In this document: positions 5,052 through 54,392 of the stretch, in pieces
Position numbering within the stretch: position 1 is the first letter of the stretch
How the letters are laid out: each line of letters begins with the position of its first letter
Origin: Octopus vulgaris
Taxonomy: Eukaryota
DNA length: 64,000 bases
Direction: 5' to 3'
Assembly (NCBI GenBank): GCA_951406725.2
Contig: OX597819.1
Coordinates: forward strand, 76,756,001 to 76,820,000
The notes under the pieces: model-generated
What the model was told of the DNA's origin: nothing
The model's database searches: none
What the model saw: the letters and a program-made list of their open reading frames with translations, nothing else
Position numbers and translations under genes: made by a program

Positions 5052-5330
5052 CGCAAGCATGGCTATGGAGTTAAGAAGTTCACGTGATAACTATGCGGTC
5101 CTGGGTTCATTTCCATTGACTAGCACCTTGGGCAAATGTCTTCTACGGTAACTCTAGGCCGATGAAGACCTTTTACATATACGGAAAGTGTGTAGAAGCC
5201 CATCATATATGCGTACACCTGCGTTTTTATGTTTGTCCCTCACAGCTTGACAACTGGTGTCGGTCGGTTTACATCCTCGTAACTTACCACTTTGGGAAAA
5301 GAGATCGACAGATTAAGTACTAAATTTTAA
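5052..5330 (+). mobile_element. SINE family B (diverged)
   Basis: tggctatggagttaag A box, gggttcat B box, accttgggcaaatgtcttc core. Confidence 0.7.
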
Positions 5331-17970: not shown

Positions 17971-18402
17971 TAATATGTACATATACTAGAATTAAAAATG
18001 TATTGCATGTGACTGCCTCCGTTTCATAGTTCCACGCTAATATTCAGTAATTTGGACATAACGATCTTCATCGGAATTTTGTTGTAGATATTGAAGTGAT
18101 TAAACAAAATGGTGGCGAGAGGTCGGCACAAAGCGTTCTCATTTATGTTTCATTGAGAAATAAAATATATCACAAAGAAATCAAAACTAATAATGAACGA
18201 AATGAGAAGGCTACTAACAACTTACAAATGCAGTTTAAAATTCTTGTTATCTCTTTTCAGGTCGAGTGACAAATCACCGGTGACGTCATACGTCGTGTGT
18301 TACGATGACATCTTGATTTTTGCTTCAGGAGCAACGATCGGTGTATCCAAGTGCTTGTATAGGAATGTAAGATTATAGTACGGAATTAAATACAGGCAGA
18401 CA

Positions 18403-18465
<63 letters not shown>

Positions 18466-18529
18466 TACATATATATATATGTATATATGTATATATATAT
18501 ACATGTATATATCTTGGCATATCTGTACA

Positions 18530-18610
18530 TATTGATCGCCTGTATTTTACTCACAATCACAGAACAGCGACTAATCATCCTGTTTACAAAATTTATGCGT
18601 ACATCTGTGT

Positions 18611-18664
<54 letters not shown>

Positions 18665-18880
18665 GTGTGTGTGCGTGTGTGTGTAGATCGAAAAGCAAGT
18701 AGATTCGGATGTGTGAATTTGCGAGTTGGTAGCAAAAGAGTCACTACACTCGGGGCGTGATAGGAAAGAAATTCATGAAAGGAAACAGTAATAAAAAATA
18801 TATGGTATGGCTGGAGGTGTGTAAGAAGAGAAAGAATGGATGACAATTGACAAAGAGAGAAGACAATTAGAAAGAAATAT
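18530..18880 (-). repeat. Inverted copy of 14840-15170
   Basis: See 14840-15170. Confidence 0.85.
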
Positions 18881-19225
18881 ATAAACACAGAGAGAGAAGG
18901 AGGAGGAAGAAGAAGTGAGGTGGGTGGAAAAATTGAAGAACACAAATGTATTTGACGAACAACAGGAAAAGTGTAAAAGAATACTAGATGAGTAGTGTTG
19001 TATAGGTAGATATATAGGTAAATACATAAATAGGTATACACATGCACAGGCACAAGCATACACACAAACACACACACACACACGCACACCACACACACTC
19101 ACACAGAGAGACACACATATATTCACATGTAGGCAGATAGATTAAATACGCGCATATAAATATACGTGTCTGTACTTATATGTGTGTGTATACACACACA
19201 TACATACACACACACACAGGCGCAT

Positions 19226-19323
<98 letters not shown>

Positions 19324-19770
19324 CTAGAAAATGAAATGGAAAGAGCAGCTGACAAATCACGCGACACTCGTACAAGAGAATTAAACTAATTTCCTATGGT
19401 ACATGATTTTTTGCATTTCCTATTTGTAATTTGATTTTTAACAAAATACGAATCATACTGAGTCGGTTGTTACTAGAAAATTGGGTTGGATATCTGATTT
19501 ATTTGTTGCCATCTCTCTTTGATCGAAGTTCAAATCCCTTTGCTTTGGACAACATTGTTTCTGAACACTGAAATATGTGTCTGGTGGAACATGCGCACTG
19601 CATTAATCTTCACCCTTTACGAATCTCCCGCATTTTTAATTTACTGCATACTACCTACACTATTGCCCTTTGTATACAAGCATCATAAAATTGGATGCAG
19701 AATACATTTGGTATCAACACAGATAAAAACGCTTGGATGTTTTTCACTTCGTCCTTGCTGTGGTGATTCT

Positions 19771-19850
19771 GGACAGCCACTTCCACTTTTAATAGGGAAC
19801 GTGGGTAACAGGACAGCCACTTCCACTTTTAATAGGGAACGTGGGTAACA
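19771..19850. repeat. Perfect 40 bp tandem duplication
   Basis: ggacagccacttccacttttaatagggaacgtgggtaaca x2. Confidence 0.97.
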
Positions 19851-21021
19851 AAACTGTTAATTTCTCCTGCTTCTGTTCACCTGGTATATGGTCATTTTAT
19901 GATAGTCTGCTTCCAAACACATAACACCTATTGTGCACCTACTACAGATTGTTTGGCTACGTTGTGTAGGATTTCAACCAGACACGTTTCTGAATTTCGA
20001 GCACGGCCTTTTGTCTCATTTCAGTAGGATTCTGTATTCTATTCTGTTAACTAAAACTTTAGGCGTTGCTAAGTTTCCTTCGATACTTCTTGGTTCGAAG
20101 TATTGCCTCCAAAATCTATTATGTGTGACATTCGACTGTAAATATGATTCAGCTTTTTGTGTTTCACTAAAGACTTTGAGCAGCAAGGTATTTTTAAGGC
20201 CTCTCCAACGGCCGACAGCAATAAGTTCAACCACTAACCAACAAGAACGAACATAAATGAAGATTATTTGATAATATTTTATGCCAAGCTTTTTTTTATT
20301 TCTTCTCCTTTTCCATAAACCAACTTTCAGAATCTACTGTAAGCTTACATGCTTTACAATCAAACTCTCTGTTAATAACATGATCAGCATTAAACTTATT
20401 CTGAGCAAACATGGTTGGTGAAGCAATATTTAGACTCTTTGCAAACTCATGTCATGTTATTCCATGCCTCACTACCATAAAGTGAAGTGGACAAGGTTTT
20501 GTATGAAGAGGCTGATAATTTTTCTTTCCTTATTTTTGTCGATATTCAACGCATTTCTGCGAATACTGTAATCGATTGACTAATTCTAAAAGTTAGTTAC
20601 AACACAGCTGATGTATATGAAACGTCGTATCAAATAAGCCTTCCATAATCTATGCTATTATTTATCGTTATTTTATGCGTAAGTTTTAGGAATATAAGTA
20701 TCAGAAAAAAGTTGTTATTCAAATGTTTCAGACTGTGAACTATATTACATACAGCTTTAGTATACTGCATAACGTATCATCAGTTATGGTAACTCGCTGA
20801 CTGAAACATGATCTGACCAGCTATTAATAACATATTGACAAGTTAGCAGGTTCTGCTTAATTATATTATGGGAAGCGGGTTGTCGATGTGAAGTTGATAT
20901 TGTAAACTTACTGATGTATAGTTGATTACATTTTGTTTAAATAGTTGCTATTTTCAGATTAGTATTCTCGCTTTCTCCTAGCTTACGACTTGCAATATTT
21001 TCTTTCGCTCACTGTATCATA

Positions 21022-21104
<83 letters not shown>

Positions 21105-21700
21105 TTCTTACACTTTTATTCTCTTTTTTTTTTTATTGTGTACACCTGATACGGATCTAATTATAGCAAAGTGAAAGATGGACGGTGTCAACAAAATAAG
21201 TCTTAGTCTCACAAAGACAGTGATTTCACAGGTAGAGAGTATATCCAATCCTTTTTCGTCTTCGTATAAGTATATATATCTAAGTACATGCACACGCACA
21301 TACATATACACATATATCTATACGTGTATGTGTGTGTGTGTGTATATATATATATATTATTAAGCAAGAAATGGAGAGATTTAATAGATAAAATCAATTA
21401 ATTAATTAACATCGCCTACAATTGTTTCAATTCACACTCAATACAAATTACAAAACATTTATAATAAAATATGTTTGCATTTTGCAGATTTTGAGTGGAA
21501 TATAATCAGGGCGAAATGTTGACTGGTTGAGACATTCTAACAGACAAAGTAAATGAAAGTATGTTTAGTTACTTGCTTAATAATATTTGATATTTATAAC
21601 ATATTTATTAAAGAGATATCGCTTCACAGTATAATATATTAAACCAGTGTAACTTGGCTGGAACCATCCCTATAAGAGGTTTATATCCTCAAATTGACTC

Positions 21701-21847
<147 letters not shown>

Positions 21848-22001
21848 TCACACAAACAAACAAGCTGTCAGAACCACACATAGACACAGAGGTAAAACAC
21901 AAGAGATCTACTCATCAAGTAGCTAGCTGCGAATTATATATATATGCATATATGATAGGGGTACAAGCATAGACTCAAAGGCACACACATAGATATGTAT
22001 G

Positions 22002-23091
<1,090 letters not shown>

Positions 23092-23120
23092 CGGAAACTG
23101 AAAGAAGCTTATCGTATATA

Positions 23121-23192
<72 letters not shown>

Positions 23193-23196
<4 letters not shown>

Positions 23197-23335
23197 CTTC
23201 TTTCAGTTTCCGTCTACTAAATCCACTCATAAGGCTTTGGTCAGCCCCATGCTATAGTAGAAGACATTTACCCAAGGTATCACGTAGTGGGACTGGACCC
23301 TGAAACCATGTGACTTCTTACCACACAGGCACACC
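23193..23335 (-). mobile_element. SINE family B 5' half
   Basis: aagcttctttcagtttccgtctac...cttaccacacaggcacacctg. Confidence 0.85.
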
Positions 23336-24015
23336 TGTGTGCGTGACACTGGAGCCACAAATTCGTGAAAGAATACTTAATAGACGTAGCAAAGTTTATT
23401 TATTCATAAGAACTATTTTATGGTTGCCCATGTAACGGAAAACGATAGTGCTAACGTGCAAAAGAGAAGAACTAAAACATAAAAGTATTACGAAGTAACA
23501 AGTAAGTTCAAAGTTAGGTAGGATTCGCAACGTACAAAAAGGAATGGAGCATTTTTTTATCGCATTTGCGGCCTAACAAAAATAAATTATAAATTTAAAT
23601 AAAAAGAAGTCGACAATAATACGTAAACTATTCCCGCGACATACTTCTTTGCTACGCTGAGTTTTCATTTTGTGATATACTTTTTGAATGTTTCACAGCT
23701 TAAGTTAGAGACTCTACGTCTGTATAGGAACGTTAATTTTGAATGTTATGAAACAGTCGTTATTTTTTATTGCTTTTAATTTTTTTTTTTTTTTGTGAGT
23801 TGTTGTTGATTATAAATAAAGATTTCGGAAGATTTCTCTGGAAATGATCATCCTATGGAAAATGAAAAGCAGATACGTACTGTGTACTTGAAATAGGTTT
23901 GTGCTTGGTATATCTGTTTGTGTGTAAAGATTAGAGGATATCAACCATATAATCTGCTAATTTTGGATTCCAGAGCATGCAGGTAAGCTGTCATTGCATG
24001 TCGCTATATCGTATA

Positions 24016-36204: not shown

Positions 36205-38875
36205 TGGGAGACTCAAGTAATTGAGTGAGAAAGACAACGAACAGACTATCATGTAAATTTTAAAAGCTTAAATTTCTCAGTAAAAACAGAAAGAACCTGT
36301 CTAGCACATATTCTGCAATTTTAATTAAGTGGAGCGATGAAAATATGGAAAACGTTTCTAAAATTCTTATAATTAGTTATTGTTATCGTTTCTTAATTGG
36401 AAATCAGTCCCTACTTATGCAGAAAGTTCGTAAAATTTAAGCACAAAGAAATATATACACACAAAATTCAACTTGTCTGAAAGGAATGTATATATTATGC
36501 ATAGAGATAAAACACCAGCTGAATATACGCACATGCCTTGAGGTATCTGATAAGGAAGAACATGAAAAGCGAGTACATTGATCTGCAACGAAAGTAAACA
36601 GGCTGGTGATTGTTATTAACGAACAATGTTAAACATAACTGAGGGAGTAAAAGAAAGTTTCTTTAATTCACTAAACGCGAGATAATACAAATATTGGGCA
36701 AAAAAATATGTTTCAAAATCCTGCTTCTATGAAGATAAAGAAAATTGCAAAGCATCCCAGTGGCCTATACAATCATTTGAGGTTTGTTCTCTCAGAGATA
36801 ACGTGTGACGTACAATTTATAATGTAATTTTAATTTTAATTATCAACGCAAAACGACCATTTCAAATAATTTTCTGTAGCAGTGCGGTGGAGAAATAGAA
36901 GTTAGAGAACACCAGAAAAAAATCCCTTGTAGTATTCAATTATCTCGTTATATTCTTAGTTCAAGTATTAAAATGTCTGCACAGCTTTTACTCTCCCTAG
37001 TATAGATAAATAACGTACCACTATAATGAGATTTCTTAATTTCGTGATCTTTATCCTAAAATAAGAAATCATTTCATTTTTATGTTTCCGATCAATATAA
37101 GTGCATTCCACTAGAAGCTGCTGACGACTTGGTATAGTGAATATCAGCATCACAATATACTGCTCCCAAGCCCTTTCCTCACTATAGTTCTTTTAGATCA
37201 AGCAACGACCTTTGACATGAGTACAAAACCACAAACACATATAAGTTGATTAGATAGGTGCCTGTATTTGTCTGATTTAGCTTGTCAACCCGTTCAAGGA
37301 TGAAAAACAGAGTCAATCGTTGCAGAATTTTAACTCAGACGCAAATGTGCATATCTAAACACCACAACACATTTGATACAGAGTTCTACCGTTTCAGCAA
37401 TTCATTTTCTACCTCCAGTTATTGGTGGTTTAGCAAATGGCTAAATGTATTTAGCGCAGTCGTTCCGCCATCTTTATTTAAATCATGCCTGGTGTAGACT
37501 TTATATTTCATCCTTTCACAACGATTGAATATGAATTTGTTGTAAGCAGGTACATGCATACAATATCTTAAAGGTAGATGAGAATAACATACCTGCTATA
37601 ACTTAGTATAAAGACAAGTAGTAGACATGACCTTTGGAGGCTCTCTGAGACTGATGCTGTCAGAGATCGATATGATTAATATTAAGCCTGGGTGTGTATA
37701 ATTCAACTTCTGCAGGGAAAATTGGGGTAGGGGGGAGAACCAGGGGCTTTGCGTTTTGAAAAGAAGGTGAAGTAGTTTGTCTGGGAATTTAGTAGGTGAA
37801 ACCGCGATGGCCATGTCTTCCCAGGGAAGAGGAGATGCAACAATTTGTGAATTTGTTGCATTTGAGAAATACAACTAAGTCTTCTCTAGAAGTTTATATC
37901 TTCCTTGGCAGCACTTTTTCTCCACGAGTCGATAAATTAGATTCTATTGCTGTAAATATGATGTTCGCATCATGTTTATTGCTAATAGTATTCAAACTTA
38001 AGAACAATTACCTCATTTAAATCTCATTCAATTTCGTTATTGATTTTCTGAAAGCTTTGAGTGCTTTCAATCGGAAATTGTGTCTAACTTTGTTTAGAGG
38101 CTAGAGTACGCATGTTTGTTGCTCTAAAATTAGAACGTTATCTACTGAGATTCTGTAAGTATTAGACAGACCAACTAAACTACGTAGATATCAGGTAAAA
38201 TGTCATAGTGACATGTAAATGTGAAGACCATGTTAATAACCTTTTCACATAATATTTAAACTCATAAACTTATGTTTTGCTTATGCTTCATACACTGTGT
38301 ATAAGAATTTCGGAGATGTAATTGTTTGGTAATGGATTTGGTTGGACATCTCACATTCGGCCACCTATGAGACTGTTGAAGCAGCGATATAATACGAACC
38401 TTGAGAAGACAAAGCGCATATACGCCAATGATTGTAATGTGTTAGAAAGTGAGATTTTACCAAACAGTTAGATAATAATATTTTGGCTGAAGTTTAGGAT
38501 ATCTGTGTGTAGTAGAAGCACTTTCTAGACGTTCGAACAATAATCGATTGTAGGTCTTAACTGACGGTTGAATTTATGTCACGTTGTTAGCTTATTGCGA
38601 ACTTTAGATTGTTACCCCTATGTTCATACAAATCTCTGTTGTTAAGAGACCCCAAATGTCTAAGGAGAAATGTTTCCCAATGGACAATCCATGTTGAAAT
38701 CAACATCAATTTGTTAAATTAAAAATATGAAGAATTAATTTGAGTAACAAAGAGAAATCAGAAAAATATTTACGAAGTAAAGTGATGATGGTGATGATGA
38801 TGATGATGATGATGATAATTTGCTTACTCCATCTACGCCATGTAGAATGAGAACCCCGATTCGAAATTTCCCCAT

Positions 38876-38921
38876 GACACCTGATGAAGGCTGGAGGGTA
38901 TATCAGCCGAAACGCTGGGTT
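38876..38921 (+). ncRNA. Minimal hammerhead, probably inactivated
   Basis: GACAC-CUGAUGA-A-GGCUG(10 nt)CAGCC-GAAA-CG-CU-GGGUU; U16.1 reads C. Confidence 0.6.
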
Positions 38922-39292
38922 AATAGCAAACAAGATGGGGACAAATATCCGTCAAATGTAAATAATGTACATAATTCCTCATCTCTTAAATATAGAACTG
39001 AATGTACTTTGTATTGGTAATAAATAACCAGACTGTTGAAATGCGTATACTGATATTTTGCTCAATCCCTTCGTTCAGCATATGTACCCTTTACACTTTT
39101 GAAATATACATGGATTTGCTGAACACCTTGGACCAGAAGACAACTGTTTAACTTTGTATCTACTGGTTTACTGGCCAGTTCAGTGATATGGAATACTTTA
39201 TTTCAGGGTGATCTGTTAGCCATAGATACGTGGAGGTGCTTTCTAGTTGATTTGCCAAGATCTGTTTGATCCTTTTTGCAGTGTATGTGTGT

Positions 39293-40518: not shown

Positions 40519-41644
40519 AACGGACAATTTATGAACAACAGAGAAGGGACTGACTGTTGCTATTGTAATTAACCTGTAACAGTCTTCTTGTTACTGTTCA
40601 ATTCATTGATAGTACTATCTTTCTATTAGTACTACTTTTCCATTAGTTCTGTCTTTACACTTGCTATTAGTACCAACATTCTATTTAAATTTTAAGTACG
40701 ATTTCAAAGTCGGTGAGTCACTAAAATTCTAAGAAATAAGAATTGCAGTCTTCATTAAGAATATTTCACTTGCCCACCTCTATACAAACGGTAGTGGAAG
40801 AATACGAGTGAATATGGGTATTGTGCTGTTGATGTTAATTTAGTCGTGTTATCCACACTATTTCTCAAAAATCGAACAAAAAATTATCGATCGATGTTTT
40901 GGTAAGATATAGTCTGGAAAAAACGATACAAAGAGGAGAATTGCCAAATTTGCATTCTGGGAAGAAATTTCATACACTTACATTTAAACATGTGTATGTG
41001 TGGTCGTATATATTAGATATTTATTAGATATTTATATTAGATATTTATTATATATTAGATATTTATTTACCTTGCTTTATTTATATATTTTGTTGTAATT
41101 GATGTAGCAGTTACTTTAGTGTAATTTCAAAACAATGATAAAGGAAATAATCTAGAGACTGTCAAACGTATTCGGATAATGCTTGTCTTCTCGGGTGAAT
41201 TGTGGGTGGAAATACACAATCACTTAATTAAAAGTCAATTCAGTTTTTTGTGTTTTTGTTTTTGTTTGTTTTTAGCCGCAGGTTCAAATCGGTTTGAATA
41301 AAATTTTGGTCAAGTTTTCCTACCGTGATCATCTCATCGTATGTTTTCATGTTTAGACAATGTCTCTAGGTTTACATTACCCGACGTGCATTTCCTTTTA
41401 TTAAATTCGGTACAGTGTGATTGCGAATGAGATTAAGTTACTATTTCTAGTAGATAAATCGATCGCATATATAGTCGCTCTCGTAGGTTTGATCATCATC
41501 TTCTTCAACATCATCCATCATTGTCATCTTAAAAGTTGTTATCTTTACAAAACACATGCACATCTTAAAATCAATCAACCAATCAATGTGTGTGTGTGCG
41601 TGTGTGTGTGTGTGTGTGCATATGTGTGTGTATTTATGCCATAC

Positions 41645-42480
41645 ACTGATTTGTCGAGACTACACAAGGATTTCGCTGGTCCTTTAAATGGTTCTTATTA
41701 CTTAAAGGTAGTTGATAGTTTCTCGAAGTGGCCAGAGATTTGTAAGTGTAAAAAACCAACCTCCTCAAATGTGATAACTTTTTTTACACGAATTGTTTAC
41801 GAGATTTGGTATCCCAAACGTGATAGTCTGACAACTGAATGCAATTTGTGTCTGTTGAATTTTAAAAGTTTTGTGAAGTGTTCGCGGTAGAACATGTTAC
41901 AACTGCGCCGTAACATCTTACATCTAACAGACTGGCAGAAGGCATTGACGATACTTTCAAGAGTGCCATAAGAAAGTCAAATAAGGAAGTCACGGATGAG
42001 GTAGCTCTACAATTCTTGAGAGTGTACCGCGAGACACCAAATCTGAATGCACTAGCAAGTAGATAACCTGCGGAGCAGATGTTTGCGAGGAAAGTAAGTC
42101 TTTGATAAATTGCTACTAAGCAGGACGAGAAAAAGTGACAGGGAAAACATAGCAAGATTATTTAAAACTGATGAAAAGGTGTTTATGAGGGCATATAAGA
42201 ATGAAAGACAGAGTTGGGAAGATGGCGTAATTACCAAATGAATAGGGTAAATGCTGCACTGGGTAAAAATTAGAAAGGCGTATATGAGAGACACCTGAAC
42301 CAACAGAAAAAAAGATTCGTGGAGAGCGAACCCAAGAGATTGAAGGAACCGATAGAATCGCTATACAATACATTCCAAGTACCAATACCACTGCAGGTGA
42401 TTGAACCCAGGTGTACAAGTGAAAGGAAAAGAAAACGTACAGAATTCTTGAAAGTAGATGCCAAGCAGAAAAATGTCAAA
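41645..42480 (+). mobile_element. Degenerate Ty3/Gypsy integrase region
   Basis: RLHKDFAGPLNGSYYLKVVDSFSKWPEI...RFGIP...HVTTAP...FLRVYRETPN..PAEQMF; frameshifted. Confidence 0.9.
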
Positions 42481-44749: not shown

Positions 44750-45569
44750 CGTGCTTGCGTATTTGCAGAGAGGCGATTAAATGGGCTATATGCTATCCTA
44801 TCTCAGCGTATACTTTCTTACTTATGTAAGAAATCATAATCATTTTACTCCTCTCTTCAATTTCTCGTTCTTCTGTATCCCTCTCTCCCTCTTTTTCTGT
44901 CGCCATCTCTATCTCTCCCTCTTTATCATGTCTTATCTATGTCTTATACTCTCATTATATCTCCCGATCTCTTTATCGCTGAATCCATTCTCTCCTGTTC
45001 TCCTTTGTTAGCAAATCGCCTTCGTCTTTCCTTTCCTCAATTTCGTCTTACAATAACAGCAATGCAGCATCTATTTATTAAATTTAGATTTATTTCCAGA
45101 GAAATGACACTAAAACCTCCAGCACATTGAATAATATTGCAGCAAAAGCCTAAAGCTTGCTGTTATCACAAGTGATGCAGAAAAGAGAAAGAACTTTCAA
45201 TGAGCAATGCATCAACACACTCCTACCTACAGAGCACAAAAGAAGTCTATTTATACATGCATTCATATATACATATTCATACATGCATACATATATACAT
45301 ATTTATACATGCTCACATATATACATACATGCAAGTCTTAATACATACGTAGACGTATGCAAATACTTGCATTTATCACACTTATAGATACTCTAATGCA
45401 TACATATACTAATATCATAATAATGTAATCATAATAGTACCAGTAAAACGTAGTTATCAATAAATTTGTTTAGGAAGACTTATATATACAAGTTAATGCA
45501 TTCTTAGTCTTGTTACAAATATACTCAGTGGATAAATAACAGTAATTTTGGCAGTTTGAAATAGTGATA

Positions 45570-45612
45570 CAACAGACCTGTTTCGACATTATTTAAAGCC
45601 TCGTCAGTGTTG
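45570..45612 (-). ncRNA. Minimal type I hammerhead with canonical core and GUC site
   Basis: CAACA-CUGACGA-GGC(UUUAAAUAAU)GUC-GAAA-CAGG-UC-UGUUG. Confidence 0.78.
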
Positions 45613-45824
45613 CTTAGCTTGCCTTAAAAGCTGCAGTAGTTAAAAAGAATAAAACTTCTTACAGAGAAAGCTTTATGTCAGCCAGGTCATTCTCGAGCGT
45701 TACTGGTTACATGTAACCCACGGCGACTAAACCAGCCCACCGAAATTTATTGGACATCCTTCGGGACGAAAAACAAAAGGGTGAGAGAACTCAAGAGAGT
45801 CAACGGCCACCCAATAATGTATGA

Positions 45825-47105: not shown

Positions 47106-47160
<55 letters not shown>

Positions 47161-47163
<3 letters not shown>

Positions 47164-47361
47164 TGATGACGAGCAAAGACTCAAAAACTAGTCTCTGGGT
47201 GCAGGCTTAGCTGGGTGGGGCTGCTTATCTCCCCCTTGTAAACATAAGGACACAGGAAATGTATCAAAGCCAACATGAAGCGTTGATGCTTCCTGGGGCT
47301 AAATAGCAGTGGTGTGATTCCCTTCATGGGACGGTCACATTAAGTTGACAGTATACAACTA

Positions 47362-47362
<1 letters not shown>
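47161..47362 (+). mobile_element. Diverged relative of the 363 bp HHR unit
   Basis: GA-CUGAUGA-C-GAG(CAAAGA)CUC-AAAAA-CUAG-UC-UCUGGGUGCAG; the downstream ataaggacac...ttgacagtatacaac is colinear with 47999-48170. Confidence 0.75.
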
Positions 47363-47424
<62 letters not shown>

Positions 47425-47428
<4 letters not shown>

Positions 47429-47769
47429 AAATATTGAAATTCTAAATCTCTCGTAGAGACATGTACGGTGGTGGGGCGATAGAATGGTTGTATACTGTCA
47501 ATCTAACAAGAACGTGACAGTAGGGGGTACACCACCGTTGTATAGCCGTAGGAGGCATCGAACGCCTCCTGACAGCTTCGACACATTTTTTTCCCTGTGT
47601 CCTTATATACATATACGAAGGGGAGACAAACACCCCCAACCGCCGAAACTGCATCTAGGGACACCGTGTTTCAGGATCATTGTCCTTCATCGGCCTAGAG
47701 TAGCAGACACCGGTCGGCTGGTGATATTTGCCTGGACTCTGTATCTGTATATATGTAAACTCAGTGAAG
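47425..47769 (-). mobile_element. 363 bp HHR unit, inverted permuted copy (345 bp)
   Basis: Reverse complement of 47890-48176 continued by 47814-47867. Confidence 0.85.
47649..47706 (-). ncRNA. Extended type I hammerhead
   Basis: Exact reverse complement of 47952-48009. Confidence 0.85.
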
Positions 47770-47770
47770 A

Positions 47771-48173
47771 ACTGTCACGTTCTTGTTATATTGACAGCAT
47801 ACAACCATTCTATCGCCCCACCACCGTACATGTCTCTACGAGAGATTTAGAAATTCAATATTTCTTATTTTGATAATCAGTGAATAGACTTCACTGAGTT
47901 TACATATATACAGATACGAAGTCCAGGCAAATATCACCAGCCGACCGGTGTCTGCTACTCTAGGCCGATGAAGGACAATGATCCTGAAACACGGTGTCCC
48001 TAGATGCAGTTTCGGCGGTTGGGGGTGTTTGTCTCCCCTTCGTATATGTATATAAGGACACGGAAAAAATGTGTCGAAGCTGTCAGGAGGCGTTCGATGC
48101 CTCCTACGGCTATACAACGGTGGTGTACCCCCTACTGTCACGTTCTTGTTAAATTGACAGTATACAACCATTC

Positions 48174-48176
<3 letters not shown>
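47771..48176 (+). mobile_element. 363 bp HHR unit plus 43 bp terminal redundancy (retrozyme-like)
   Basis: 47771-47813 recurs at 48134-48176 with 2 mismatches. Confidence 0.85.
47952..48009 (+). ncRNA. Extended type I hammerhead ribozyme (U4C variant)
   Basis: CUGC-UAC-UCUAGG-CCGAUGA-AGGA(CAAUGA)UCCU-GAAA-CACGGUG-UC-CCUAGA-U-GCAG; predicted cleavage after C47998. Confidence 0.85.
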
Positions 48177-50195: not shown

Positions 50196-51707
50196 TAAAA
50201 GCAATTAAGATTCAAGTCAATTCTATTGAATTCACTTGAATGCGGTACTTAACTTAGATGCACCAGAAAACCTATATGGTATTAACCATACAATAATGTT
50301 GGGTGATTATAAACGAGAAAAAAGCAACAAGAATGGATTAGTTTTTCAGTACAATTGTTTCATACAAAGACAAGATTTATTAAAAGCTGCAAATATTGCA
50401 GCATATACAAGTGTCCCGTACTCATCAGCCAAAACACATATGAGTTCTCCAAGCATCCTAGTGGGTGAGACTACACTCATGAAGTATCGGAGATAGTTCT
50501 ATAAAAAGCAAAATTTAGGTTGTAGGTGGACTTCCAAAGTTCTTTAATGATGATGCACAGTCTTATAACAGGTTTTAAAAAAGCTTAGTAGGTGCAAATT
50601 TCCAGAGATATGAGGAGATATTTCATACACACAGACGATGAATTTATCCATGATTAATCCACAGTAAGGTGGGTATAATTTCCTGCTATATGATAAGATA
50701 CTTGTCACACCTCTGTTCATTTCACAAAACTGCTATGTTAGAATTATAAAGTCTGAAGGAATTTCGTGGAGCAAAGAAAAGAAAAAAAGAAAAAGAAGAA
50801 GAAGAAAAAAAAGAAAAACTGCCCACATAGAGCATACTGGGATAACTGAGAGGGAAGGGGTCGCAGGTACCCACCTACACAGAAAGGTCTCTTCCTGTAG
50901 AGACAGACAGTCTGGCTTAGAATTTGCAGGAATCTAAGAATTATAAAGGAGAACATTATTTTTGACCAGTATACAGCTATTAATTGCCAATCCTACGGAG
51001 CTAAAGCAGATATAAGAATCTAAAGAGAACAAGGGAAGGGATAGAGGAGTCAAAGGCTATCATTAGAGGAAAATACATTAAGAGAAATAAGTGCAATACT
51101 AGAAGGAGGTCATTTAATTAATTTATTTATTATTGTTACTGTTTATATTATTGTTACTGTTTATACAATGAACAGACTGTAGGTCTATACCTAGAGGTCA
51201 TTTACAAGGTGTGAGAGAATTGCTTATCATATTGAAATTTCTTATACTACTTTTAAGGGAGTAGCATTACTTATTTAACTTTATAATAGAATTATGAAGT
51301 ATTAGTAACTTATTTGATTTAAGTTGTGTTACCTAAATTAGATTAAAATTAGATTAAATTAAATTAACTATATAGTCAATTAAATTTTTTTAGGCAACGT
51401 ACAAATACTATTTATTTCTTTATGTTCAAAATCAGGTGCAGTTAGAAAGAAAGAAATAACCACAGTGTAAGAGCTCGCAGTTATCTATTTAAAAAAATAT
51501 TAAAGGTTTTGTTTTACTAGTAGAAGCAAGATAGATCTATCTCCATACGATTATTCTATACGGTTTTTATTTAAAATATTTTAGAGTCTTCATTTTAGCG
51601 TGAATACAAAATTGACCCAGTTCTATATGGTTGATTGATTGATTGATTCTAGTTTCAGCTCATGAGCTGTGGCCATGCTGGGGCACCGCCATTTAAAAAA
51701 TTATCTG

Positions 51708-52958
51708 TCAGAAGTTATTTAGCAAATTCCTATTTTTTCTATGCATTAGAATTTCATACGTCTCCATGGAGCAGAGTTGGCAACCAACTCTGTTATTTTT
51801 ATAAGGCATTGCTCTTCTAACTATTTCCCAATTAAGGTTATATTTAATATTATTATTTTTGAGTTCCCAGATCTTACTTGAATGTGTGGTAGTACCAGCT
51901 TTATGACGTAACTTAAAAGAGGAGATATGATTGCTAATTCTTTTCCTAAAATTTATAGTACAACCTAAATAAAAACATTTGCTATTCTCAGTAGTTATAG
52001 TACATTTATAGATTACGTTACTTACCCCACACAGACCAGGTGCCGGGCATTTTGACCTAATTCTACAATTACACGTAGGGGGATCATCTTCAGATGTTGG
52101 ATTATTTATGGATAGATGTCTCATGTTCTTGCTATTCTGATTATCATGAGTATATTTATCGTTATTATTATTATTATTATTATTATTATAGTTAATGTTG
52201 TTATCTAAAGCAGTGTTATCATTTATCGATCCTTTTACATCATCATTTAGTTGTAAAGTCTTACCATGATTACCTACATTATTGGTATTGTTACTATTAT
52301 TGCTAGTATTTGTATCCGAATGTATATTGTTGTTATAGATATCAATGATGTCCTCATTCCCTGTATTTTCTCTATTAGCATTACTCCTATTATTAACATT
52401 ATTACTCCTATTAATATTAATATTATTATTAGTTATTCCATGGTTATTGATTCTACCCATGTTTTGATAGTTACTATTGTTGCGTTTATTGCTTTTATTT
52501 TTGATAGTATTATTACAATTGTTATTGGTATTCATGTTGATATTATTTTTATCTTTCCTGGCTAGCTTAATGTTATTATTATTAATCTTAGCTATTAAAG
52601 TGGACATATTTGGGAGGGTTGAATAAGAAATCCTAACTGTTTTTTTAGAAATAATTCTATGATATCTATGAGAGGCTGGGAAATTTTTTTCTAGAATTAC
52701 TTTGAATTTGCTTTGTATATCCGATAGAATCGCACAGTTGAAAGGAATATTCAGCCGGATTATATCTTTCTTATTAAATTTCCTTGAATTAGAATTAGGG
52801 TTAGTTGAATTATTACTAATCTCACCAGAGTCATTGTATTTATTACTATTATTTATATGCTTCTTTGATTTATCTAATTTGATTTTATCCGAGTTACCTA
52901 TGCTTTGGTCTATGTTTTTATTTTTATGATTAGGCTTGTACGTTAGATTTGCAGTTAA
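51708..52958 (-). mobile_element. Penelope-like element 3' half: stop-free linker plus GIY-YIG endonuclease frame
   Basis: CNCRIRSKCP..C..NVIYKC..FYLG..FRKRISNH..WEI..CQLCSME..LLN. The frame stays open upstream of the listed ATG (IIRLNIPF..NFPASHRYHRII..ISYSTLPNM). Confidence 0.9.
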
Positions 52959-53066
52959 CTATATATAGTTAATCCAAACATGAAAACACAAAGAGAAGAC
53001 AACAACGCGAGGACGTGGAACAAATATAGTATTATTGGACTCTCAGGAAGGAAAGGAAGAAGGAGG

Positions 53067-53101
53067 GTTTAACGTTTCGAGCGGAGCTCTTCGTCGGAAA
53101 C
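53067..53101 (-). ncRNA. Minimal hammerhead (U4C) in a pseudo-LTR-like segment upstream of the PLE frame
   Basis: GUUU-CCGACGA-A-GAGC(UCC)GCUC-GAAA-CG-UU-AAAC. Confidence 0.72.
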
Positions 53102-53134
53102 ATAGGAGAAGGGAAGACAGAGGAAAAGAAATCG

Positions 53135-54392
53135 CAGGGTGTTTCAAAAAATGTAATATCATTTGAGATGCAAATATCACAGAAACTACACAGTCAAAGC
53201 AAATGGGACTAAACAGGTTAAATGTTGACCAACATAAGATGTATTCCTCCAAATTTGAATGAGAATTTAAAAGGTATGTCGATTCCATGAACGATTTCAC
53301 AAATGTTCAACATGCGCATCGCCTGAGACACACTTCAAGTCAGTAGTCCAGCTCCTTCGAAACACGCTGTAGTATACCTTGGGTAACAGTCTCCAGTGCG
53401 GTAGGGATTCCCTGCTCGAGTTCCTCTAGGTTTGCAGGAATGGGGAGACATAGACCAGGCCCTTCACATAGCCCCAGAGAAAAAAATCATAAGTTGTCAG
53501 GTCAGGTGAACGTGGCGGCCATTTCAACAGCACATTGTCTTCATCACCAGCACGCCCGATCCATCTCCCTCGCAGATTGTCACTGAGATAAACCCGCATA
53601 GTGAGCTTCTAGTGAGGTGGAGCCTGATGAAAACTGAAGGCTTCATGTTCATTTGCAAATGAACTCATCCATTAGCCAGTTCTGAAGCATTTGCAGATAA
53701 ACATTGCCATTTACATTTCCCTGAAAGAAAAACGGGCCATGAAGATGTTTCATGGAGATGGTACAGAACACATTCACTTTTGGTGAGTCCTTCTCATGCT
53801 CAACTGTGGCATGAGGATTTTCTTCGCCCCAAATGCGAACACTTTTCTTATTGACTTTACCATTCGTATGAAATGTGGCCTCGTCACTAAAAACAAGACG
53901 TTCCTTGGACTCGACTTCTTCAAGTTTCTCTTGCATATCAACACAGAATTGCTTGCGCTTTCGCTTGTCATCTGCCGTTATGGCCCTAACGAGCTGCAGC
54001 TTGTAGGGTTTCATTAGCAAGCGTTTCCTCGGGATGCACGAAAATGTCGTTGGAGGGATCTGAGTTTCCAGACTTCGTCTTATGAATTTCTTGGGACTTC
54101 ACAAGAGATTTTGGCGAACCCATTCGACCGTTTCTTCGGATGTTAGTGATCATCCAGATCCCTTTGCCTTGCACAGACAGCCTTCCTCTTTGATATTTTT
54201 GTGCCATGTTCAAATCTGCATTGCCGTTCGTAACTTTTTAGAGAAGTCTGTCAGAAATGCACGCAGCACAGTCTTGTTCGACCGTATTCGAGTATACTCC
54301 AACACACAAAATACCTTTTCTCTTCCAGTGAATACCATTTATATACCTGAAAAGGTAAATGTATCAAATATTAAACATATAATTTTGACCTG
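53135..54392 (-). mobile_element. Degenerate Tc1/mariner-superfamily transposon (rosa/DD41D-like)
   Basis: KPYKLQLV..LVFSDEATFH.NGKVN..RIWG..GPFFF..YLQML and WPPRSPDLTTYDFFLWGYVK. One TIR begins cagggtgtttc; the other end is eroded. Confidence 0.88.

Follow-up and report, generated by a model that had tools for sequence, protein, structure and literature searches.

As depicted in Fig. 2 of Craig 2021, PLE insertions contain partial tandems, an inverted 5′-truncated copy and, at one end, a tail of 30-40 bp, and they show a bias toward microsatellites. In Frangieh 2024 (PMC11167929), a PLE protein was shown to nick AT-rich DNA on both strands, PLE RT began cDNA at two sites within the RNA that mark the limits of the tail, and hammerhead mutants still inserted in vitro. 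Metazoan non-LTR retrozymes (Cervera & de la Pena 2020, PMC7229834), among them a mussel family of 350-390 bp, are described in the accessible text of that paper as ORF-less units of 170-400 nt with a type I hammerhead, a GC content below 50%, strong self-pairing, long TSDs where these are visible, and co-existence with PLEs. The octopus repeat unit that we report here is like them in these respects. The paper makes no mention of cephalopods, octopus, squid or inverted copies.

A preprint on Xenopus retrozymes (bioRxiv 10.64898/2026.07.22.740005) argues, in its main text, that the retrozymes of animals derive from the pLTRs of PLEs as non-autonomous elements. The argument, made for vertebrates and without end analysis, draws on co-occurrence and on homology to pLTRs, and local amplification in tandem is favored; in contrast, our basis is the footprint of the insertions, and homology to a helper plays no part in it. 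The main text of the preprint does not mention a tail, initiation, molluscs or cephalopods, and mollusc families may be listed in its supplement and in that of Cervera 2020. According to the accessible part of a 2020 review (PMC7761336), animal retrozymes show no helper-revealing motif. A 2026 O. vulgaris repeat annotation (PMC13282606) reports 31 recently active PLE families, and ribozymes are unmentioned in its accessible text. Our literature searches turned up no retrozyme described from a cephalopod; Repbase, Dfam and paywalled papers lay outside this search, and the family may therefore already have another label in repeat libraries.

We analyzed a 64,000-nt stretch of the Octopus vulgaris genome (contig OX597819.1, positions 76,756,001 to 76,820,000), referred to as the window. 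Unit position n corresponds to window position 47770+n, and the predicted cut falls after unit position 228. The features used below are as follows.

47159..47367 (about), + strand: older, 5′-truncated copy of the same family in the same microsatellite
47388..47423, unstranded: (TA)n target microsatellite, left
47424..47769, - strand: inverted arm, 3′ end at unit position 98
47424..47478, - strand: 55-nt tail, unit positions 44-98, at the outer left end only (end table; Frangieh 2024)
47649..47706, - strand: the same hammerhead in the inverted arm, core start 47693, predicted cut after 47660
47771..48176, + strand: direct arm, 3′ end at unit position 43
47952..48009, + strand: extended hammerhead of type I, with the U4C core CCGAUGA at 47965-47971 and a cut predicted after C47998
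48177..48231, unstranded: (TA)n target microsatellite, right
50290-52958, - strand: PLE-1, 5′-truncated, with a GIY-YIG endonuclease frame at 51708-52958 and a very-long-stem-II hammerhead near 50428
52962-53135, - strand: short PLE-like stump with a minimal hammerhead, also U4C (CCGACGA)

The direct arm consists of a 363-nt unit (47771-48133) followed by a 43-nt repeat of the unit start that is 95% alike; it thus runs through unit positions 1-363 and then 1-43 (1.12 units) and stops at the short fixed end (position 43). The inverted arm matches unit positions 119-363 and then 1-98 at 337 of 346 nucleotides, being 5′-truncated at position 119 and continuing to the long fixed end (position 98). 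The two arms are 97% identical. The original prediction had described the monomer with its redundancy and an inverted copy in (TA)n, neither beginning nor finishing at the cleavage site, and all of this is present in the sequence. The third, older copy in the same microsatellite was not part of that description; it is 83% identical to subfamily C (see below) over 153 nt, ends near the short fixed end, and carries a degenerate hammerhead with CUGAUGA at 47163 and GAAA read as AAAA. The unit has a GC content of 0.452. The unit is devoid of ORFs (over a dimer, the longest frame with an ATG measured 69 aa in sense and 111 aa in antisense), and a promoter search of the unit returned a single B-box-like 9-mer and no A box.

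To place this insertion we searched the 2.8-Gb assembly (227 contigs), which contained 1935 candidate places for the unit, 40 of them scored. The end table was built from 60 loci (the 30 best DNA matches and the first 30 pattern matches), of which 12 were duplicates and were removed, leaving 48 insertions with 76 arms of at least 80 nt. Arm 3′ ends fell at positions 37-44 in 39 of the 76 arms and at positions 91-103 in 33, with 4 elsewhere, such that 72/76 ended at one of two sites lying 55 nt apart on the unit. Within the pattern-only set, 29/31 arms stopped at a fixed end. The 5′ starts, on the other hand, were scattered over the whole unit. Inverted pairs made up 27/48 insertions, joined head to head and mostly with an overlap of a few bases, while 21/48 were single-armed; 24 of the 27 pairs had one 43-class and one 98-class end, and their centers differed in every copy. 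The window insertion follows this pattern, with the 98-class end on its left arm and the 43-class end on its right. A by-eye reading of subfamilies B and C gave the same two ends. Targets were rich in TA: (TA)4 occurred within 20 nt of 54/72 fixed ends compared to 7% of background 20-mers, TA flanked both sides of 26/48 insertions, and direct repeats of 10-16 bp were present at 5 of the other 22. At a single locus (L133:1420-1550), 13-bp direct repeats enclosed a subfamily A fragment of 67 nt that comprised the hammerhead alone; it was also present in contigs of runs X4 and X5.

Because of this end table, the two pieces in the window are one insertion and not two randomly permuted copies. The original prediction had explained their different starts by different points on a circular map; the starts do differ, but the reason is 5′ truncation. 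Free circular permutation is not supported, given the shared fixed 3′ ends together with the 5′ truncations. The 55-nt segment at the outer left would be a PLE-type tail between two putative RT start sites. It is longer than the 30-40 nt of the literature; the tail of PLE-2, an autonomous family in this genome, is about 71.

Both copies carry a hammerhead with a GUC site, a 6-bp stem I with a CUGC/GCAG extension, and a 4-bp stem II closed by the 6-nt loop CAAUGA; the site, the extension and the loop are as had been predicted. Of the three stems originally called good, stem III proved weak, with just 3 bp and a 3-nt loop, and it is absent from the MFE fold of the isolated motif. It had also been missed that the core, CCGAUGA, is a U4C variant of CUGAUGA. 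U4C reportedly has considerably lower activity in vitro, yet it occurs naturally in a viroid and is sufficient in vivo (Perreault 2011, accessible text). The octopus U4C hammerhead is probably slower than the canonical form, and the window family adds a natural U4C extended hammerhead. A 32-nt hammerhead pattern had 228 exact matches in the genome (reversed control, 0), and U4C was present in 98 of the 100 listed among these. An Rfam search, suggested at the outset as a check, found no hammerhead at gathering score over the window and none among 40 matches at E<=10. In an alignment of 18 rows, hand-picked from 44 distinct hammerhead sequences with truncated and near-duplicate rows omitted, 94.8% of cells pair and 8/17 pairs show a double-sided change, exceeding slid controls. 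Several of these double changes derive from two subfamily C rows, and since the rows are related, we treat the covariation as supportive and not as a probability. Judged from sequence, the hammerhead is likely under selection, and its selected role would probably be the release of unit-length RNA.

The family comprises at least three ORF-less subfamilies (74-85% alike) whose predicted hammerhead fold is kept with compensatory changes. Identity to the window copy was 81-85% for subfamily B and 74-75% for subfamily C, the latter with 2340 candidate places in the genome. The U4C core is found in subfamily A and most of B, and the canonical CUGAUGA in C. The unit fold reached -138 kcal/mol (z, -8.67), with 0/100 shuffles as good; the whole-unit consensus had double changes in 13/94 pairs and did not recover stems I and III. 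A far more diverged relative of the unit, a partial tandem with the core CUGAUAA, was seen at L179:846-1370 and suggests an old lineage.

We then considered the PLEs of this genome. In 30/30 loci of PLE-2 (autonomous, 727 aa, L134-L163), the end fell at either of two sites separated by about 71 nt, and both of its fetched inverted pairs carried one end of each class. It is very young, with a minimal hammerhead and many inverted pairs, and is a good candidate for in vitro work. PLE-1, which lies in the window, has many intact ORFs of ~950-980 aa elsewhere in the genome and short and long ends in TA. Its ORF had no Pfam or PDB match; we assign it putatively to the PLEs by its motifs and by the presence of PF26215 in relatives, and the Cys-rich linker described by Craig 2021 (accessible text) suggests that it may be Neptune-type. 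Named relatives of this neighboring PLE protein come from Argonauta and Octopus. Comparison of the unit with these two autonomous families, among 18,000-23,600 candidate matches, gave no significant similarity to PLE-1 (46/300 and 64/300 shuffles equally good) or to PLE-2 (211-980/1000 shuffles equally good). A C-rich look-alike motif past the ends was considered as a unit-PLE link and rejected, as it was not significant against shuffles. The unit likewise had no significant sequence in common with the short U4C stump family (52962-53135), which has 1251 candidate places and no PLE protein match of its own in 16 loci.

Several other features were noted in the window. Hammerhead-like motifs at about 45490-45615 (-) and about 38870-39000 (+) look like the ends of other PLE families. 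A DDE transposase remnant (53649-54098, -) and an integrase fragment (41405-41890, +) were both below the Pfam cut-off. Within an element that we take to be a SINE, a 17-nt match to hammerhead stem I and core (5147-5176, +), with no stem II or III, is probably due to chance.

Taken together, we put at roughly 80% the probability that the window holds a single insertion of an ORF-less, hammerhead-bearing family of ~360 nt with two fixed ends, likely copied in trans by a PLE RT/endonuclease, and our verdict is a new family that fits both the non-LTR retrozymes and the non-autonomous PLEs. PLE mobilization is inferred from the close footprint match and the in-genome PLE-2 control. The unit has every sequence-level property of non-LTR retrozymes (size, no ORF, GC below 50%, type I hammerhead, tandem copies, and self-pairing) and those of PLE-mobilized elements (two fixed 3′ ends with a tail, variable 5′ truncation, an inverted arm, and an AT-rich or microsatellite target); it does not have the RT plus GIY-YIG ORF of an autonomous PLE. 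The retrozyme reading of the original prediction thus stands as far as an ORF-less, self-paired, type I hammerhead unit of 170-400 nt with many dispersed copies fits the published description. Unlike metazoan non-LTR retrozymes, however, the unit occurs mostly as dispersed, 5′-truncated inverted pairs of 1-2 units and not as tandem arrays, and has a U4C core. With PLE insertions it shares two fixed 3′ ends plus a tail, an inverted 5′-truncated arm, partial tandems, a (TA)n target, and ends downstream of the hammerhead. It differs from PLEs in that it has no ORF, its hammerhead is of the extended and not the minimal kind, its ends lie 178/233 nt beyond the cut, and it resembles neither of the two autonomous families tested.

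An identical footprint would also be expected if the units were pseudo-LTR stumps, that is, terminal repeats of an unsampled autonomous PLE left by heavily 5′-truncated insertions, and the Xenopus retrozymes are, in the preprint's main text, pLTR relatives. But arms longer than one unit run into a further unit and not into ORF sequence (49 complete units of 341-366 nt were recovered), and the extended hammerhead contrasts with the minimal one of PLE-2. Moreover, tblastn with 69 PLE-type proteins against 1.5-kb flanks found no PLE protein match at 72/75 loci and weak remnants at 3/75. At one locus, L031, a decayed, stop-ridden PLE remnant lies just upstream on the same strand; we read it as a chance host site yet count it in favor of the stump reading, as we do the 1.5-kb extent of the flanks. 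Copies with fixed ends that adjoin a PLE ORF had been named in advance as evidence against a retrozyme. Half of this is what we find, because the copies have common fixed 3′ ends and their starts vary by 5′ truncation; the copies are without an adjoining intact PLE ORF. Overall, we regard pseudo-LTR stumps as improbable. A palindromic MITE-like DNA element or a fold-back duplication of local DNA, with the hammerhead arising by chance, would account for insertions that resemble inverted repeats in TA, and there is one case of local duplication. Yet the 55-nt difference between the outer ends is constant, the center varies in every copy, nearly half of the insertions have a single arm, and the hammerhead covaries. 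The end table of the 48 insertions largely refutes this reading, and we give it very little credence.

A third reading, compatible with the PLE-copied insertion that we prefer, concerns the template alone and corresponds to the stronger form of the original prediction: a genuine circRNA retrozyme for which rolling-circle reverse transcription is obligatory. Divergence between arms was 2.2-2.5% within an insertion versus 5.8% between insertions, and arms of one insertion were concordant at 619/638 diagnostic sites, where random draws would give about 236 discordant; therefore, each insertion had one template sequence, and such a single haplotype favors a circle. The cleavage site was crossed by 63/76 arms, and twice (two hammerheads) in 6, a count that is inflated because the searches selected arms with intact hammerheads. 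There were 3 starts at the cut compared to 3.1 expected, with no pile-up. With crossing arms and no pile-up, a cut linear monomer copied once is an unlikely template. Also in favor of a circle, partial tandems were common but no array exceeded 3 units among 100 listed matches, and coral, mussel, and axolotl relatives form circles (PMC7229834, accessible text). However, an uncut multimer accounts for the same data, the core is U4C, and PLE insertion in vitro does not require cleavage (Frangieh 2024). The longest arm (3.4 units, locus L019) also speaks against the circle, as two of its units share private changes and part of the arm is therefore a later local DNA duplication. In contigs of four runs that were only guessed to be RNA, the unit was covered in pieces, none spanning, with no circle or ends, and we did not use them as evidence. 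These data are consistent with a circular template, with an uncut multimer and with re-priming of a single RNA. Thus, the reverse-transcript origin proposed originally holds insofar as the copies look derived from a more-than-unit template, but a circle is not required, and we place obligatory rolling-circle copying just short of even odds.

For the preferred reading, a single insertion copied by PLE proteins, the template would be a transcript longer than one unit, either an uncut read-through multimer or a circle formed by hammerhead cleavage and ligation, which would fold into a conserved branched rod. The folded RNA would be bound by a PLE protein, which would nick both strands of AT-rich DNA. 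cDNA would then begin at two internal sites, one per strand, at positions 43 and 98, with the cleavage site 178 and 233 nt upstream of them. Each cDNA would halt at a variable point, and the two would join head to head, giving an inverted pair with the tail at one end. A broader version, in which the family is an independent, long-lived ribozyme-circle lineage (at least 3 subfamilies and older relatives) written by PLE proteins through two-site initiation and rolling-circle RT, with no helper homology, is one that we hold tentatively, with the odds somewhat against it.

The link between retrozymes and PLEs has so far rested on co-occurrence and pLTR homology, and the octopus family adds footprint evidence. 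The insertion ends match the signature of PLE RT in vitro, and the question of the helper is therefore directly testable. If true, a circle lineage written by PLE proteins would prove, at the level of footprints, how retrozymes move in animals, and this genome would have intact ORFs of candidate helpers ready for reconstitution.
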